Shown here in pieces: positions 549 through 18,280 of a stretch of 30,495 nucleotides of DNA (positions within the stretch are counted from its first letter, which is position 1; every line of letters begins with the position of its first letter). Source of the DNA: a virus (lineage: Duplodnaviria; Caudoviricetes); the IMG/VR virus record IMGVR_UViG_3300025848_000135, positions 1 to 30,495 of that record, one strand, 5' to 3'. The notes below the pieces were generated by a model. The model saw only the letters and a program-made list of their open reading frames with translations, was not told the DNA's origin and searched no databases. A program made the position numbers and the translations under genes.

Positions 549-753
549 GCGGATTCAACTTTTCCGCAAGATTTTTCAGACGCACGATGTCCAGCACCCC
601 GCCGCCGTTGGTCAGGGGCTTTAAAGCGATGCCCTTGGATCGGTAGTAGTTCGCGCGGGATCGGGCGTTGGCTTGGTTGATGCCCGTGCCATCACAAAAC
701 TCCGCGAGGGTTTGGGCGCTCTGCCAGCGTGTTACGAAATCTTCGGGTTTCAA
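520..753 (-). CDS. Small putative HTH-like DNA-binding protein (77 aa)
   Basis: TTG start at 753 overlaps the upstream stop (TTGA) and follows AAAGGA. MKPEDFVTRWQSAQTLAEFCDGTGINQANARSRANYYRSKGIALKPL has an HTH-like pattern. Confidence 0.6.
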   Translation of the reverse strand: MKPEDFVTRWQSAQTLAEFCDGTGINQANARSRANYYRSKGIALKPLTNGGGVLDIVRLKNLAEKLNPLDARDEGAV

Positions 754-1142
754 TGGTTGTCCTTTCGAGTTAGTGCGGCTTTGACCTTGGCCCAATAGCC
801 GTCGGTCGCCTTGCGGTTGCGGCGCCAACCTGGCCCCGCGTTGTGGAGGCGTGCGAGGGTCTGGGCATCGGCGTTGGCCCACGCCTTCGGTTCGTACCGC
901 TTCATGTACGCCTCGACCACGCGACGGGCGTAGTCCTGCTCCCGGCATCGGGCGTAGTCGCCGGCCACGCGGCTGTCGGTATGGTAGGACCGCCATATCT
1001 GGAACGGCCCGATTGCCCGGCCAGCGTCGCCGTCAGGCACGTTGGCGCGGTTGCCCGACTCGACGTACCGGATTGCGTCTAGAACGCGATCCTGGGCGGG
1101 CGTGGCGGAAAGGGCGACGATTAAAGCGAGTTCATGTATCAC
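750..1142 (-). CDS. Lysozyme-like muramidase (i-type/destabilase-like) with a hydrophobic N-terminus, 130 aa
   Basis: GTG at 1142 overlaps the upstream stop (GTGA). Motifs AIRYVES, DGDAGRAIGPFQI, YMKRY, ARLHNAGP and TDGYWAKV match the lysozyme-like/destabilase pattern. Confidence 0.75.
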   Translation of the reverse strand: MIHELALIVALSATPAQDRVLDAIRYVESGNRANVPDGDAGRAIGPFQIWRSYHTDSRVAGDYARCREQDYARRVVEAYMKRYEPKAWANADAQTLARLHNAGPGWRRNRKATDGYWAKVKAALTRKDNH

Positions 1143-1549
1143 GCCGCACCGCCTTCCGCCTTGGCGTGTTGGGGCATCTTCCAGCTTGCCGCCGGCCCGC
1201 AATAATCGCATTGCGTCGATGACTTCACGCACCACACATAACCGTTGAGCAGATACCAGAGTATTCCGCAGGATGTTGACGCAATGTTCCTTCCGTACCG
1301 GACCACGCACAACACCCGATCCGGTTCCGGCATCGCGTGGACGCGCAGCGAATACGCCTCGTACAGACCCGCGAGGAAGCCAGCCCCAACGTAGGTGCTG
1401 GCGTTGCCCTCCTGCTCCTCCTGCGCGATCAGGGCCGCCAGTTCCGCATCGTCTCGGCGTTCGGCAAAGGCCAGGCCCTGCAATCGGCCCGCCTCCCACG
1501 CCTGATCTTGCGTGGGGTTGATCGGATACATGACGTATGATGTTTTCAT
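1139..1549 (-). CDS. Hypothetical phage protein (136 aa)
   Basis: ATG preceded by AGGAG; the stop is coupled to the next gene. Confidence 0.65.
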   Translation of the reverse strand: MKTSYVMYPINPTQDQAWEAGRLQGLAFAERRDDAELAALIAQEEQEGNASTYVGAGFLAGLYEAYSLRVHAMPEPDRVLCVVRYGRNIASTSCGILWYLLNGYVWCVKSSTQCDYCGPAASWKMPQHAKAEGGAA

Positions 1550-1615
1550 TGCTCAATACTCCTATGGCGTGATTGCCTTACCCCGCCGCGCTACCGGCGG
1601 GTAAAGGCCGTCACG

Positions 1616-12907: not shown

Positions 12908-13780
12908 ATGCAGAGTCCGATCAACGGCGTGGTTGTCATGTCGGTCAACGACCGCATGATGTTCACCAAGACGGCCTTCAACCTGTTCGACTCGATCATC
13001 CGATTCGGGATGCCGGTCATGCGGGGTGCTGGTCCGTATTGGGAACAGTCGCTCCAGAACGCGATCCATAGCGCGGTCCACTCCAACCACCCCAACACCG
13101 GCAAGCCGTTCGACTATGTGATCTTCTTCGACGGCGACAGCGTGTGGGAACCGGACGACCTCCAGCGGCTTGTGACGGTGCTGGAAAAGAATCCGCAGTA
13201 CCATGCGGCTCAGGCGGTGCAGGCGGATCGCAACGCGGACAAGCCGCTTGCGTTCGCGTGGTTGCACGAGTTGGGCATCCAGTACGACCACGGCAAGCCG
13301 GTCACGGAGATCATCCACGGCCACTTCGGGTTTACGGTCATCCGTGCCGACGTGTTCCGTAAGATGTCCAAGCCGTGGTTCTGGTCCACGCCCAACGAGG
13401 ACGGGACGTGGGACCTGGGCCGCGTGACTTCCGAGAACGGCACGATCAAGTTCATCGGCAAGCGCGACCCGGACACCAACTTCTGGCTGAAGTTCAAGAA
13501 CGCCGGATTCAAGGTCGTGCAGGTCAATCAGGTCGTAGTCGGTCACATGGAGTTGATGTGCCGATGGCAGGAAGGCCCGCGTGTCGTTTCGCAGACGATG
13601 CGGGAGTTGGAGAACGACGGCAAACCCGAAGGACTCCGATCCCCGTTTGTCGGTGAGTTGACGCCCGATCAGATGTCGCGTGGACCGGGCGGGAATCCGC
13701 TGCCGCCCCCGCGATCAAATGTGGAAGTGAAGCCGCCCCCGATTGCCCCCGGTGATATACTACCGGAGGGCAACCAATGA
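12908..13780 (+). CDS. Glycosyltransferase, GT-A/GT2-like
   Basis: DxD motif in FDYVIFFDGDSVW, plus HFGFTVIRADVF and DPDTNFW...GFKV...VGH. Confidence 0.75.
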   Translation: MQSPINGVVVMSVNDRMMFTKTAFNLFDSIIRFGMPVMRGAGPYWEQSLQNAIHSAVHSNHPNTGKPFDYVIFFDGDSVWEPDDLQRLVTVLEKNPQYHAAQAVQADRNADKPLAFAWLHELGIQYDHGKPVTEIIHGHFGFTVIRADVFRKMSKPWFWSTPNEDGTWDLGRVTSENGTIKFIGKRDPDTNFWLKFKNAGFKVVQVNQVVVGHMELMCRWQEGPRVVSQTMRELENDGKPEGLRSPFVGELTPDQMSRGPGGNPLPPPRSNVEVKPPPIAPGDILPEGNQ

Positions 13781-14442
13781 TGGTCGTTTACACCCATCTC
13801 GGACTCGGCGACCACATTATCTGCAACGGTCTGCTTCGTGACTTGGCTCGCCGTCACGGTCGGGTGTTCACGTTCGTCAAGCCGCACAACTACGAGTCCG
13901 TGCGGGCGATGACGGCTGGCGCGAACATCAACACGATTGTCGCCGGCGACGCCGAGGCGATGGAACTCCTGTCGTGGATGGTTCCGCAGGGGTTCAAGGT
14001 CATCGGGCACACGCACCTCGACCGCTCGCTTGGATTCGACAAGTCGTTCTATCAGAACGCGGGCCTGCCGTTCGAGCGACGCTGGATCGGGTTTGACGGA
14101 ATCCGGTCAAAGATGCGGGAGTCCGACCTGATCGACAAGATCAAACTGCCGAGCGAGTTCGTGTTCGTGCATGACGATGTTTCGCGCGGGTACGTGATCG
14201 ACGATTCGATGGTCACGAAGTTGCCGGTGGTTCGCCCGCTGCCGGGATTGACCGCCAACATCTTCGACTGGATGGGCGTGATCGAGCGTGCGAAGTCGGT
14301 CCACCTGATCGAGTCGTCGTTCGCGTTCATGGTCGATTCGTTTCCGGCGATGGACAAGGAAATCGTGCTGCACCGCTACGTCCGCAAGCTCGATTACGGG
14401 TGCGTTCCGACGTACCGCCTGCCGTGGGAAATCATCGAATGA
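13777..14442 (+). CDS. Putative glycosyltransferase-like protein (HLGLGD motif)
   Basis: N-terminal YTHLGLGDHIICNG and C-terminal VHLIESSF, resembling GT-B/GT9-like patterns. Confidence 0.55.
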   Translation: MMVVYTHLGLGDHIICNGLLRDLARRHGRVFTFVKPHNYESVRAMTAGANINTIVAGDAEAMELLSWMVPQGFKVIGHTHLDRSLGFDKSFYQNAGLPFERRWIGFDGIRSKMRESDLIDKIKLPSEFVFVHDDVSRGYVIDDSMVTKLPVVRPLPGLTANIFDWMGVIERAKSVHLIESSFAFMVDSFPAMDKEIVLHRYVRKLDYGCVPTYRLPWEIIE

Positions 14443-14966
14443 AGGGCTACAAGGACGCGATCCGCAAGTCGATGGCGTTTCTTGCGAAGGACCGCAAGCG
14501 GGTTTTTCTCGGGTACTGCACGAAGGTCGGACTGGCGGGCGGAACGCTCGACCTCGTGAAGCCCAAGAAGCTGATCGAAATGCCCGCCGCCGAGAACCTG
14601 GTCGCGGGCGTCGCAATCGGGATGTCGCTTCGCGGGTACAAGCCGGTGGTGTGGTTCGAGAGGATGGACTTCATCCTCAACGCGCTCGACGCGATCGTGA
14701 ACCACGCCGACAAGATGGCGGAAATCTCGCGTGGCGATTACGTACCCAAGGTGATCTTCCGGGTGAACGTCGGCGGGAGTGCGAAGCCGCTCTACACCGG
14801 CCCGACGCACACGCAGGACTTCACCGAGTCGCTTCGGAAGATGATGACGACGATCCGGGTGTTGAACTGTAAGACACCGATGGGCGTGACGTTCAACTAC
14901 GAGATGGCGGCGGAGATCGCGGAGAAGGAATCAGTGATTGTGGTCGAACGAAGGGACTTGTGGTGA
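14439..14966 (+). CDS. TPP-dependent enzyme beta subunit (E1-beta/transketolase pyrimidine-binding domain only)
   Basis: ATGA coupling. LIEMPAAENLVAGVAIGMSLRGYKPVV...MDFILNALDAIVN...GPTHTQ; lacks the C-terminal domain. Confidence 0.85.
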   Translation: MKGYKDAIRKSMAFLAKDRKRVFLGYCTKVGLAGGTLDLVKPKKLIEMPAAENLVAGVAIGMSLRGYKPVVWFERMDFILNALDAIVNHADKMAEISRGDYVPKVIFRVNVGGSAKPLYTGPTHTQDFTESLRKMMTTIRVLNCKTPMGVTFNYEMAAEIAEKESVIVVERRDLW

Positions 14967-17050
14967 CAACGAACCGCTACAGCAACTACAAGTTGATCCG
15001 CTTCCCCGGCAAGATCAAGTCGTTCCTTGACGGGAAGATCACGGCCCCGCTGTACGTTCGCATCAAGCCGCTGAACGCCTGCAATCACAAGTGCAACTGG
15101 TGTCTGGTTGCGGGGACAATGATTGCGACGCCAGACGGCGACGTGCCGATTGAAAGGCTAACGATTGGCGACTACGTTTATGGCCCAACCGGTCGGGTAT
15201 GTCGAATCACAGAGACAAGCCGCCGCCATGTGGACCGGATCAACTGGATTGAATGTGGCGGGCGAAGGGTGGGGTGCAGCGACGAACACCCGATCCTTAC
15301 GCAAAGGTCATGGGTTCCAGCGAGTGATGTCCAGCACGGAGACGCCGCCGTTGTGCGAGTGCGGATGCGGGAATCGCGTCCTGTCGCATCGCGGAGTTTG
15401 GAACCGATTTCTGCAAAACCATCAGTTGCGTGGAGTGAAGTTGCCGGAGACGCGACGACAATCCATGTCGGATCGCATGAAGGCCAACAACCCGATGCGT
15501 CGGCCAGAGATTGCGGCGAAAGTCGCATTGAATCACAAGTTGAATCCAAAGAAGTTGGCGGACTGGCACATCAAGAAGCTCGCGGACCTATCGCGGAAGA
15601 GAATGATGGGCGATGGCAACCCGATGCGGAATCCGCAGGTTGCCATGAAGGTAGCGACAAAGAATCTTCTGGCGAGGGGAACATCGAAGTACGAGGACGC
15701 CTTCTGGCAATGGGTGATCGAGAACAACCTGCCCATCGAAAAGACCAGCACCGGGGAAATGTGGATTGGTCGGAGAAACCCGGACTTCCGCGTTCCGAAC
15801 CAAAAGAAGTGCATCGAGTTGACGCAGAACATGTGCTTCATCGGGTACGAACGTCGGATACGAACGATGGACAGCTACGCAATCCCGAGCATTCAGCACT
15901 ACAACAGCAAGGGATGGAACTGTCTGGTGATATACGGTCGGTCGAAACAGCGGTTCAAGATGGAGTTGGCGCAGGTCATTCTCGACTACGCATCGCCGGA
16001 ATCGAACTGGAGCGGGGTCTGGAACTACAAAGAGTTGATTCGATCCGACGCGAAACCGGTCGGTTTGAAGTGTTCAACTTTGCCTGCGACCCAGACGAGT
16101 CTTACGAGGCCAATGGCATCGTAGTGCATAACTGCATCTACGGCCACGGCACGAACGAAACCGTGATGCACGACGGCATGGACGACCGCGACAAGATCAC
16201 GACGCCACGCCTGACTGAAATCCTGGCCGACCTTGCCGACATCGGCGTGAAGGCGATTACATTTTCGGGCGGCGGCGAGCCGATGGCTCACCCCGGTATC
16301 CGAGAGGCGATGTGGACATGTGTGGATCGCGGGCTTGACTTCTCGTTCATCACGAACGGGTCATTCCTTCGCGGCGACAACGCGACGCTCGCCAAGCGTG
16401 CCAAGTGGATTCGCGTGTCGATCGACTATTGGGATGGCGACAGCATCGCCAAGTCGCGGGGCGTGAAGCCTGATGAGTTCTTGAAGATCGACGGCAACAT
16501 GCGCGGGTTCGTGGACATGAAGGAGGATTGTGAACTCACGATCAACTTCATCGTCACGCATGAGAATCACGAACGGCTGCTCGACGTTGCGACCTGGCTT
16601 CGCGGGGTGGGCGTTGACAATGTGCGGTTCTCGCCGGTGTGGATGGACAACTTCCACGAATACCACGAGCCGATCCGAAAATACGTCGAGGAACAGTTAG
16701 CGTGGGCGACGCGGTTGCAGACCGACAAGTTCAAGGTGTATTCGTCGTACCGCATCGACCCCAACGCGAAACTTCGCGGGTATGACAAGTGCTGGTTCCA
16801 GCAGGTCGTTCCGGTGATCGGTGCGGACGAGTGCGTGTACGCCTGCCACAACACGGCGTACAGCGACAAGGGGCGGATCGGCACGATCAAGGGCCGCAAG
16901 TTCAGCGACCTGTGGTTCAGCGACGAGGCAAAGGCGTGGTTCGATAAGTTCAACGCCCGCGAACAGTGCAACGGGATTCAGTGCGCCGCCGAGTCCAAGA
17001 ATGTGCTTTACAACGAGATCGTGAACTCGGGCACCGACAACTTTGTGTGA
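14963..17050 (+). CDS. Radical SAM enzyme with a SPASM/twitch-like C-terminus, intein-containing
   Basis: GTGA coupling. After intein removal the motif reads CNHKCNW-CIYG (CxxxCxxC). Also FSGGGEP, ITNG, RVSID and CWF...IGADECVYAC...IG. Confidence 0.9.
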   Translation: MTTNRYSNYKLIRFPGKIKSFLDGKITAPLYVRIKPLNACNHKCNWCLVAGTMIATPDGDVPIERLTIGDYVYGPTGRVCRITETSRRHVDRINWIECGGRRVGCSDEHPILTQRSWVPASDVQHGDAAVVRVRMRESRPVASRSLEPISAKPSVAWSEVAGDATTIHVGSHEGQQPDASARDCGESRIESQVESKEVGGLAHQEARGPIAEENDGRWQPDAESAGCHEGSDKESSGEGNIEVRGRLLAMGDREQPAHRKDQHRGNVDWSEKPGLPRSEPKEVHRVDAEHVLHRVRTSDTNDGQLRNPEHSALQQQGMELSGDIRSVETAVQDGVGAGHSRLRIAGIELERGLELQRVDSIRRETGRFEVFNFACDPDESYEANGIVVHNCIYGHGTNETVMHDGMDDRDKITTPRLTEILADLADIGVKAITFSGGGEPMAHPGIREAMWTCVDRGLDFSFITNGSFLRGDNATLAKRAKWIRVSIDYWDGDSIAKSRGVKPDEFLKIDGNMRGFVDMKEDCELTINFIVTHENHERLLDVATWLRGVGVDNVRFSPVWMDNFHEYHEPIRKYVEEQLAWATRLQTDKFKVYSSYRIDPNAKLRGYDKCWFQQVVPVIGADECVYACHNTAYSDKGRIGTIKGRKFSDLWFSDEAKAWFDKFNAREQCNGIQCAAESKNVLYNEIVNSGTDNFV
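15101..16132 (+). mobile_element. Intein, 344 aa, inserted before the third Cys of the radical SAM motif
   Basis: Block A CLVAGTMIATPDGDVPIERL, block B CSDEHPIL, block F VFNFACDPDESYEANG and block G IVVHN|C. Confidence 0.93.
15327..16124 (+). CDS. Putative homing endonuclease (Vsr/DUF559-like) nested in the intein in the +1 frame
   Basis: 265 aa from ATG 15327 (frame open from 15165). PLCECGCG...RF...H, two NPM motifs, and SKYE...RNPDF...KKCIEL...HY..KGWNCLVI. Confidence 0.8.
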   Translation: MSSTETPPLCECGCGNRVLSHRGVWNRFLQNHQLRGVKLPETRRQSMSDRMKANNPMRRPEIAAKVALNHKLNPKKLADWHIKKLADLSRKRMMGDGNPMRNPQVAMKVATKNLLARGTSKYEDAFWQWVIENNLPIEKTSTGEMWIGRRNPDFRVPNQKKCIELTQNMCFIGYERRIRTMDSYAIPSIQHYNSKGWNCLVIYGRSKQRFKMELAQVILDYASPESNWSGVWNYKELIRSDAKPVGLKCSTLPATQTSLTRPMAS

Positions 17051-17057
17051 GGCAACG

Positions 17058-17651
17058 ATGAACCGCGAAGGGTTGATCGCGTTTGAGAAGAAGGTCGAGG
17101 CGTTGTGGCTGGAGGGGCGCCTGCCGTTCCTGTTCCACCTGTCGGGCGGCAACGAGGACATCCTGCTCGACGTGTTCGCGGGGATTCGCAAGAACGACTA
17201 CGTGTTCTCGACGCATCGAAGCCACTACCACTACCTGCTCAAAGGCGGTGGTGAGGACAACCTGCTCGACATGATCCTCGCCGGTCGGTCGATGTTCGTG
17301 TTCGACAAGCGGATCAACTTCCTGTCGTCGTCGGTGCTTGGCGGGTGCTGTGGGATCGCGGCTGGCGTGGCGATGGGGTTGAAGATGTCGGGATCGAAGT
17401 CGTGGGTGCATTGCTTCGTCGGCGACGGTGCGGCGGACAACGGGCACCTGTACGAGGCGGCGAGGTTGGTGGACGCGAAGGGGTTGCCTTGCACGTTCAT
17501 CATTGAGAACAACGGGGTATCGGCTGGCGCGACAAGGGACGAGCGTGGTGCGAAGTCGATCCTCAACGCGGATTGCGTGTGGGAATACAACTACACGATG
17601 ACGCAGCCGCACTGCCAGACGAACAACAAAACGAAGGTGACGTTCAAGTGA
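17058..17651 (+). CDS. TPP-dependent enzyme alpha subunit (E1-alpha-like, short)
   Basis: HLSGGNE, STHRSHYH and the TPP-binding motif GDGAADNG...IIENN. Confidence 0.88.
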   Translation: MNREGLIAFEKKVEALWLEGRLPFLFHLSGGNEDILLDVFAGIRKNDYVFSTHRSHYHYLLKGGGEDNLLDMILAGRSMFVFDKRINFLSSSVLGGCCGIAAGVAMGLKMSGSKSWVHCFVGDGAADNGHLYEAARLVDAKGLPCTFIIENNGVSAGATRDERGAKSILNADCVWEYNYTMTQPHCQTNNKTKVTFK

Positions 17652-18280
17652 AGATCATCAGCTTTGCCTTGTGGGGCGACAACCCCATGTACGTTCGGGG
17701 AATGTTTCGCAACCTCGAACTCGCCAAGAGCATCTACCCCGAATGGGTTCCGATGGTCTGGATGGACTGGCGACCGTCCATCGCGGCGGAACTTTACCGG
17801 GCCGGCGCGTGGGTCGAGATGATGCCTAGTCACGGCGGCATCCAAGGCATGTTCTGGCGGATGCTGCCCATCACTTGGAAGTGTGCCGACGCGGTGATCG
17901 TCCGTGACGCGGATAGTCGGTTGAACGTGCGGGAGGCGGCGGCGGTCCATGCGTGGCTCGAATCCGACAAGGGCGTGCATGTGATGCGGGACCATCCGCA
18001 TCACGCACAATGGCCGATGCTCGGCGGGATGATCGGGTTCAAGAACGGTGCGGTGCCGAACATGACGACGCTGATGAACGATTGGTCAGCCAAGAACGTG
18101 AAACTAGACGACATGCGGTTCCTCGCGTCGGTCGTTTGGCCGATGGTGCAGGGCAACTGCCTCGTCCATTCGAGCGTGCCGGAACCGTTGGGCGGCGACC
18201 CGTTCCCGAATCATCCGCCGTCATACAGCGACTACGTGGGCCAGGTGTTCGACGCCGACGACAACAAGGACATGCGATGA
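17648..18280 (+). CDS. Putative GT-A-like protein
   Basis: GTGA coupling. ISFALWGDNPMY, MFWRM, IVRDADSR (DxD) and HVMRDHPHH...MLGGM. Confidence 0.6.
   Translation: MKIISFALWGDNPMYVRGMFRNLELAKSIYPEWVPMVWMDWRPSIAAELYRAGAWVEMMPSHGGIQGMFWRMLPITWKCADAVIVRDADSRLNVREAAAVHAWLESDKGVHVMRDHPHHAQWPMLGGMIGFKNGAVPNMTTLMNDWSAKNVKLDDMRFLASVVWPMVQGNCLVHSSVPEPLGGDPFPNHPPSYSDYVGQVFDADDNKDMR

Follow-up and report, generated by a model that had tools for sequence, protein, structure and literature searches.

How can an intein and a nuclease be written in two reading frames of the same DNA, and what would such an arrangement do? The question is raised by IMG/VR virus record IMGVR_UViG_3300025848_000135 (Duplodnaviria; Caudoviricetes), of which positions 1 to 30,495 form the window analyzed here (30,495 nucleotides; all positions below are those of the window). 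A radical SAM gene in it is interrupted by an intein, and the DNA of this intein also encodes, on the same strand at offset +1, a nuclease-like protein. An earlier note on this DNA had proposed that a free-standing endonuclease gene invaded a mini-intein out of frame. Its core account was supported by our analysis; the radical SAM motif as the site of insertion, the overlap with splicing strands, a second insertion site and an altered active site were missing from it. In our judgement the locus is a genuine mobile element coding in two frames, and most likely a homing intein that is still active and whose Vsr-like nuclease is translated on its own.

An intein in a radical SAM gene and an open +1 frame

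The host gene, the intein and the second frame are laid out as follows.

14960..17050, + strand: host gene, a radical SAM/SPASM protein precursor of 696 aa (352 aa after predicted splicing), from Pfam and PHROG
14960..15100, + strand: N-extein, whose terminal CNHKCNW supplies the first two Cys of CX3CX2C, from the translation
15101..16132, + strand: intein of 344 aa with Cys1, block-B His and terminal His-Asn, immediately upstream of the third Fe-S motif Cys (site A), from Pfam, the translation and an intein-free contig
16133..17050, + strand: C-extein, beginning with Cys+1, the third Fe-S cysteine, from the translation and Pfam
15162..16124, + strand: +1 frame, open from stop to stop over 320 codons; the nuclease gene would start at ATG 15327 (265 aa) or at TTG 15351 (257 aa)

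The intein interrupts the CX3CX2C motif of the phage radical SAM gene (CNHKCNW / intein / C). Pfam matches of the precursor above cut-off were Radical_SAM (1e-07) and Hint_2 (about 2e-07 to 6e-07), with Intein_splicing and SPASM (0.015) below it, and the gene had a PHROG match to radical SAM (1.3e-05). The residues of a class 1 (standard) intein are present (C1, H343-N344 and C+1), with H, N and C+1 invariant in 7/7 rows, and the block-B His (His63) is invariant in the alignment. A 146-aa mini-intein of the same clade was modelled as an all-beta domain (predicted local distance difference test score, pLDDT, 91.5), for which a Hint fold is predicted. The earlier note had described intact splicing blocks without a nuclease in frame, and Pfam agrees: Hint_2 was matched and no endonuclease family was found in the intein frame. 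The middle, said to be rich in E/G/S/R/D, consists of these residues at 49% over codons 91-300, F and Y each being below 0.5%. The intein coordinates of the earlier note, 15101..16132, proved correct, the boundaries matching the joint 15100-16133 of the intein-free contig.

The stop of the +1 open reading frame (ORF) ends at 16124, 8 nt ahead of the intein end. The 265-aa protein-like product that had been read from 15327-16124 was confirmed, and 17 other homologues were found at 35-48% identity. Synonymous shuffles of the +1 ORF produced on average 6.8 intein-frame stops, and only 1/5000 had none. Given the 17 homologues and the rarity of stop-free shuffles, the open dual frame is not due to chance.

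Recurrence of the layout and selection in each frame

Searches recovered 4 loci in viral contigs (one near-self) and 20 in metagenomes (one self); the family size is a lower bound. In L002, L003, L004, L006, L007 and L008 alike, a radical SAM gene carries an intein with an open frame and, at offset +1, the nuclease; L009 was dropped as identical to L006 over its match, and L007 and L008 are without the 5′ junction. Both frames were open in 7/7 distinct family loci with DNA. The spacer profile was also matched, at E 1.6e-22 or lower, by four precursors available without DNA (P0021, P0023, P0025 and P0027). In the remaining 15 loci (L010-L024) the Vsr/DUF559-like gene is free-standing, and 0/15 had an open frame of 100 codons on the same strand across the match. 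A C-extein search of viral contigs returned the near-self contig only, and no relative of the +1 nuclease was found in GTDB genomes (0/25 pattern matches).

Over seven loci, mean identity across intein codons 91-290 was 0.41 in +1 and 0.19 in frame 0, and the relation was reversed in the splicing blocks (codons 1-75, 0.18 in +1 and 0.36 in frame 0; codons 316-344, 0.27 and 0.57, respectively), in an alignment guided by +1 and hence biased toward it. Over 21 pairs, the ratio of nonsynonymous to synonymous differences (pN/pS) was 0.53 in +1 and 1.24 in frame 0, a rough measure with pS close to saturation. The frame that homologues conserve, on which the earlier account turned, is thus the +1 frame and not the intein-frame linker.

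A stop in the intein frame arises wherever a nuclease codon ending in T precedes AA, AG or GA. In the seven loci T stood at 0/317 such stop-risk sites versus 255/1085 other T-capable sites, and in the window alone at 0/51 stop-making sites versus 31/143 harmless ones. Synonymous shuffles and the free-standing relative loci served as controls for the stop counts, and shuffles of the family loci gave 6-9 intein-frame stops per locus. Since T is absent at stop-risk sites and frequent elsewhere, the spacer is kept open by specific selection, and the general scarcity of third-position T formerly put forward does not explain it. In the standard code, each amino acid with a T-ending codon also has a C-ending one. 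A synonymous T-to-C change therefore avoids every intein-frame stop, and the +1 offset is free of amino-acid cost for the nuclease. The middle of the spacer is under purifying selection in +1 and only under stop avoidance in frame 0.

Overlap of the nuclease ends with predicted splicing strands, and a probable origin of the element

Outside this middle, two stretches (intein codons 76-90 and 291-315) are conserved in both frames.

15326..15370, + strand: 5′ overlap constrained in both frames, the intein strand GDAAVVR lying over TPPLCECGC of the nuclease (identity 0.37 in the intein frame, 0.55 in +1)
15971..16045, + strand: 3′ overlap constrained in both frames, IAGIELERGLELQRVDSI of the intein lying over SPESNWSGVWNYKELI of the nuclease (identity 0.49 in the intein frame, 0.52 in +1)

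The matching segments of the 146-aa mini-intein model are strands (82-86 and 109-113), and residues 229-240 of the nuclease model form confident strands. This C-terminal strand piece of the nuclease is missing from 12 aligned free-standing relatives, and for that reason the extra strands may have arisen by overprinting.

The existence of free-standing relatives fits an origin by gene invasion, in which a free-standing Vsr-like gene would have entered a mini-intein. Alternatively, a once in-frame endonuclease could have been shifted by two compensating indels, a route that concerns the origin only and leaves present homing the same. In-frame Vsr-like intein nucleases do exist in other intein lineages (L061, L067, L164). 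However, a weak search of 7324 candidates of 610-2000 aa yielded no in-frame fused family member, and the nuclease has its own stop, a free-standing-like N-terminus and an overlap with splicing strands at both ends. We accord the indel route a small chance.

A predicted Vsr-like fold with an altered active site

Three regions were distinguished in the +1 product.

15354..15422, + strand: predicted zinc finger (C10, C12, C14, H32), duplicated in some homologues, from the alignment, at low pLDDT
15447..15668, + strand: helical region containing the R-M-x(4)-N-P-M repeat twice and predicted to bind DNA (NUMOD3-like), from the alignment and the model
15675..16049, + strand: Vsr/I-Bth0305I-like nuclease domain, residues 117-241, with invariant E123, D153 and E164, and with F171 and A185 at the EDxHD His and Asp positions, from Foldseek and VIA

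Neither Pfam nor PHROGs gave a match to the +1 product, its NUMOD-like N-terminal region included, so a fold search and the free-standing relatives were needed. DUF559 passed the Pfam gathering cut-off in 0/18 family members, and 9/12 free-standing relatives had DUF559 matches (E up to 0.1). The model of the +1 product, built with 18 sequences (pLDDT 82), had Vsr and I-Bth0305I as its four best Foldseek matches (prob 0.99-1.00, E 5e-3 to 1e-2). By VIA, model residues 117-241 reached Z 10.5 to 1cw0 (root-mean-square deviation, rmsd, 4.0, 119 aligned), 9.3 to 1vsr and 8.5 to 3r3p (rmsd 3.4, 97 aligned). A profile of the family with 12 free-standing relatives matched 3r3p at 2.7e-05; the family profile alone reached only E 0.68 at best against PDB sequences. 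A Vsr-like fold is predicted for the +1 product, and the nuclease reading of the earlier note, which lack of a nuclease fold would have contradicted, stood. As a lead only, NUMOD3 occurs on 39-77% of members of the Atlas neighbours of the +1 product. L003:2710-3675, L004:2626-3603 and L007:3-920 have the zinc finger two or three times, and the intein there reaches up to 419 aa with its frame still open.

E123 and D153 (equivalent to Glu170 and Asp196 of I-Bth0305I) and E164 are invariant in 18/18 homologues at ~45% identity; E123 and D153 were assigned by motif and structural range, the profile alignment to 3r3p starting downstream of both. In 18/18, the EDxHD general-base His213 aligns with F171 (by sequence alignment only) and Asp222 with A/G185 (register counted back from a conserved Gly-aromatic pair). 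With the EDxHD His and second Asp replaced, catalysis would therefore require a changed active site. Placement in the EDxHD family was rejected: the predicted fold and the layout are alike, but these two defining residues fail. The free-standing relatives L011 and L013 are likewise without the EDxHD His, and since they share it, L011 being the best free-standing match to the family profile, the His-less variant probably predates the invasion of the intein.

The same substitutions could mean that the +1 product lost cleavage and was kept as a DNA-binding protein, the intein no longer homing or being moved by a nuclease in trans; in I-Bth0305I, according to the available part of PMC3239194, both residues are required. 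We regard such a loss as unlikely, because the E123/D153/E164 set stays invariant at this level of divergence, because the variant is shared with free-standing genes and because the domain has been deleted in several lineages, as expected for a selfish nuclease.

Proposed translation of the nested gene

15338..15353, + strand: candidate ribosome-binding site GGAG (from intein Gly-Asp codons), 9-nt spacer and TTG start, from the duplex with the anti-Shine-Dalgarno (anti-SD) sequence

The earlier note had taken ATG 15327 as the start of the product, but that start was not established and TTG 15351 has the better ribosome-binding site: its anti-SD duplex scored -6.6 kcal/mol, that of ATG 15327 a weak -3.6 (background 10th percentile -5.8). 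TTG at the same position scored -6.2 to -7.1 in L002, L003 and L006. In several free-standing relatives, a Met precedes the same zinc finger by one to three residues. The best reading of these starts is internal initiation, probably at TTG 15351, which appears likelier than +1 frameshifting.

Programmed +1 frameshifting inside the intein would make a nuclease fused to the N-extein and part of the intein. Compatible with it, the +1 frame opens 18-64 codons ahead of the zinc finger in six loci and no start codon is common to all loci. However, inspection of the aligned upstream DNA by eye, with no frameshift predictor, revealed no shared shift motif; the open stretch is just 18 codons in L004; and a TTG with an SD-like sequence stands at one position in 4/6 loci, as does a Met near the finger in free-standing relatives. 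We consider frameshifting unlikely.

An empty allele, two insertion sites and deletion derivatives

An assembly artefact, in which two indel errors would have displaced an in-frame nuclease a possibility named in the earlier note, can be dismissed: the intein is identical throughout in a second assembly (L001), contigs of runs X2, X4, X7 and X9 contain no indels (X4 covers the whole stretch, and X2 may be the sample from which the window came) and the same offset recurs in six divergent loci. L001 differs from the window at 12 positions, all outside 14884-16842 and too few to call a co-conversion tract. Strain differences cluster at 14769-14936 and from 16843 on, with none in X4 after 14883.

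The intein-free allele that the earlier note had proposed to look for exists in a close relative. In a contig of run X10, 15100 is followed directly by 16133 (1032 nt absent), and the contig differs from the window at 0 of 72 nt upstream of this joint and at 2 of 79 nt downstream; it is a single 151-nt contig at depth 2.8, and the run, labelled RNA-Seq but flagged as probably DNA, was used as an allele record only. No RNA data set was listed among the runs containing the locus. Run X13 contains extein parts only, at 95-99%, a gap in coverage that proves nothing. A TGCA-N5-TGCA palindrome lies across the intein-free junction; 4-bp arms readily arise by chance.

Fourteen inteins form one clade (support 96/93), their splicing blocks being 39-54% identical to the window intein and their exteins 23-48% identical. 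The extein tree rejects the carriers of this clade as a single group (p-AU, approximately unbiased test, 2.5e-11). The carriers not being one extein group, the intein must have been gained or lost, in a direction that the tree does not tell. This patchy distribution with empty alleles is consistent with homing.

Two sites, three codons apart, are occupied by the same intein clade. Site A, before the third Cys, is used in the window, L002, L006, P0021, P0023, P0025, P0028, P0030 and L026, and by the C-extein in L007 and L008. Site B, before the second Cys, is used in L003, L004, P0027 and P0029, and the site-B inteins group together (93/93). Site A is also occupied in P0022, a radical SAM record with a fused transketolase-like domain, by an unrelated intein whose LAGLIDADG nuclease is in frame. 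Two nuclease types, LAGLIDADG (P0022) and Vsr-like, appear to compete for site A.

Short inteins of 194, 173, 147 and 146 aa retain a VRV(R/H)-type scar, which corresponds to the zinc finger in +1 of full members. On the tree, P0029 lies within a group of full inteins (98/91), and P0030 retains part of the spacer (E 6e-05); these two are therefore deletion products. P0028 and L026 take no firm position on the tree.

A model for the element and the points that weigh on it

We propose that frame 0 would encode a predicted self-splicing intein that excises itself from the precursor of the radical SAM protein, its ~210-aa spacer being looped out and the third Cys of the restored CX3CX2C acting as the +1 nucleophile. 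The nuclease would be made from the same mRNA by internal initiation, most likely at TTG 15351 behind the GGAG of the intein Gly-Asp codons. Its zinc finger and NPM helices would bind a long target spanning the Cys codons, E123, D153 and E164 would hold the catalytic metal, and the Vsr-like nuclease would cut intein-free alleles, so that repair copies in the whole element. Later deletions would yield mini-inteins in which nuclease ends are kept as scars.

Several points weigh against an active homing intein. Cleavage, splicing and expression are predictions. The Foldseek E-values are above 0.001 for a product that Pfam does not match, and the replaced EDxHD residues, the near-saturated pS and the single short contig of the empty allele all count here. 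The TTG/GGAG start is missing in 2/6 loci tested (L004 and L008), and the position of the start Leu codon is L in only 8/13 aligned rows covering it. Interleaved empty alleles are compatible with loss as well as gain, and the extein tree does not reject a site-B group (p-AU 0.18). In the test on grouping the window intein with P0030 (p 0.023), one branch is long and the group was chosen post hoc from the tree.

A more ambitious extension, tentative as a whole, is that the two genes are interlocked: a borrowed ribosome-binding site, overprinted strands, non-EDxHD cutting (a new homing nuclease subfamily) and site sliding by three codons would hold jointly. The conserved Gly-Asp codons would serve as the ribosome-binding site of the nuclease and its C-terminal strands would overprint an intein beta-strand, the ends of both genes thus being constrained. 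Misalignment between Cys codons might have slid the element three codons along CX3CX2C, giving a new site without a new nuclease specificity.

The host gene and its neighbours

The window is a phage, with genes for terminase, a P22-like portal and the major head protein upstream of the host gene.

12908..14966, + strand: upstream neighbours, namely glycosyltransferase family 2 (12908-13780), an unnamed ORF and a transketolase-like subunit (14439-14966)
17058..17651, + strand: downstream neighbour, an E1/TPP-binding subunit

The radical SAM gene is flanked by two transketolase/E1-like subunits with the glycosyltransferase close by, and glycosyltransferase, methyltransferase or E1-like neighbours were found at 5/7 related loci scanned (L002, L004, L006, L008 and L026). 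Such surroundings suggest that the host enzyme may act in sugar modification. In the window, the glycosyltransferase, the transketolase/E1-like subunits and the radical SAM gene (12908-18280) are placed between capsid and tail-like genes. Two radical SAM genes lie close together in some loci (L026:464-1705 and L026:2321-3772; L002:4733-5476), and in L026 the first is intein-free and the second holds a mini-intein. Elsewhere in the window, an ORF at 750-1556 (-) has a Pfam Destabilase (lysozyme-like) match (E 8.5e-07).

MoaA is a radical SAM enzyme. At 15092-15103, a CxxC made up of the N-extein Cys(-3) and the intein Cys1 resembles that of the MoaA redox-trap intein, and splicing at site A could by analogy be oxygen-sensitive through this pair. 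In the Pyrococcus abyssi MoaA intein (Callahan 2011, as related in the available part of PMC10663303), an N-extein Cys likewise lies near the intein Cys1 of an oxygen-labile enzyme. That account, as far as available, describes no out-of-frame nuclease, and a redox trap of this form is not expected at site B.

Known systems and other inteins

Non-canonical inteins of actinobacteriophages with antisense Vsr-like and frame-3 EndoVII-like nucleases, together with an invasion model, have been described by Gosselin, Arsenault and Gogarten (bioRxiv 10.1101/2025.01.02.630785), whose work was available to us in part. Out-of-frame intein endonucleases in such phages, mentioned in the earlier note, are thus published, and a further case is that of Phillips (2026), below. 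In the available part of the Gosselin preprint, the inteins share with ours an intact intein, an unstructured in-frame middle, a separate nuclease ORF, Vsr-like (EDxHD-like) cases included, and the same proposed invasion origin. They differ in that the Vsr-like nucleases are antisense and the same-strand case is EndoVII-like in frame 3, whereas ours is same-strand, +1 and Vsr-like. Their hosts are polymerase, minor capsid, terminase and thymidylate synthase genes rather than a radical SAM gene. The preprint places the second ORFs typically outside the splicing domain, whereas here the nuclease overlaps predicted splicing strands at both ends.

The cyanobacterial dnaX intein of Phillips, DeSimone and Gogarten (bioRxiv 10.64898/2026.09.14.751524) has a same-strand out-of-frame nuclease ORF overlapping it, a putative Shine-Dalgarno site, frame-dependent dN/dS and empty, mini and full alleles, all as here, but the nuclease is LAGLIDADG, the host gene cellular and the insertion site single. 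The ShiLan element (Arsenault et al. 2025, available part of PMC11855218) similarly carries an out-of-frame nuclease in an insert open in the host frame, but with an HNH nuclease and no splicing domain. The EDxHD prototype is I-Bth0305I (Taylor et al. 2011, PMC3239194, PDB 3r3p), with key residues Glu170, Asp196, His213 and Asp222, and the available part of that paper links its family to introns, split inteins and free-standing genes. Judged from the same part, I-Bth0305I shares with our protein a C-terminal Vsr-like fold (predicted for ours) and the Glu170 and Asp196 equivalents, and its N-terminal NUMOD-like region may have a counterpart in ours; ours differs by Phe and Ala/Gly in place of His213 and Asp222, extra C-terminal strands and an N-terminal Cys3-His finger.

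No publication on a same-strand Vsr-like intein nuclease or on the present intein family was found in the open-access literature, preprint supplements that possibly list relatives lying outside the search. Of out-of-frame intein nucleases, the cited literature, in the parts available, gives computational descriptions only, with no report found of their expression or of cleavage by them. The layout as such is already published (2025-2026 preprints) and common in environmental phages. Distinct here are a same-strand Vsr-like nuclease whose ends overlap predicted splicing strands, two adjacent sites for one intein clade, deletion derivatives and the lack of the EDxHD His or Asp.

In a side survey, 12/64 other long inteins had a nuclease match in another frame (7 at +1, 1 at +2 and 4 antisense, of which one is weak); the sample, best matches to the window intein from partial scans with regex-set boundaries, gives no frequency estimate. 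In L054, L068, L069, L078, L084, L100 and L143 (L143:2631-3338 is Ktedonobacter racemifer DSM 44963), inteins of a second lineage, unrelated to the first, lie at the DE|CH motif of helicase-like genes and encode a DUF559 nuclease at +1 on the same strand (Pfam E 1e-9 to 4e-12); the four viewed keep IE(V/I)DG-x-x-H. Nucleases at +2 (HNH_3) or antisense (HNH_3, DUF559, weak MTES_1575) occur with inteins at L056:354-1055 (+), L057:2519-3241 (-), L063:2435-3469 (-), L066:2402-3292 (-) and L087:2462-3304 (-), and L096:920-1759 (-) has an antisense helix-turn-helix protein only. Vsr-like nucleases in frame with the intein C-terminus were seen in L061/L062/L067:1847 onward and L164:123-1181; L164 is archaeal, a radical SAM gene whose Cys motif contains the intein, and the L061-type nuclease is also without the His.

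Inteins annotated with a degenerate nuclease can conceal an intact one in another frame, where 12 inteins of this survey had a nuclease match. The radical SAM intein family offers a compact test set: its empty allele is nearly identical, its inteins occur in full, part-deleted and mini form, and its two insertion sites lie three codons from each other. Its doubly constrained ends, adjacent sites, altered active site and empty allele make it a good experimental case, in which the translation of a nested nuclease gene, the way inteins reach new sites and cutting by a Vsr fold without the EDxHD His and Asp become testable.

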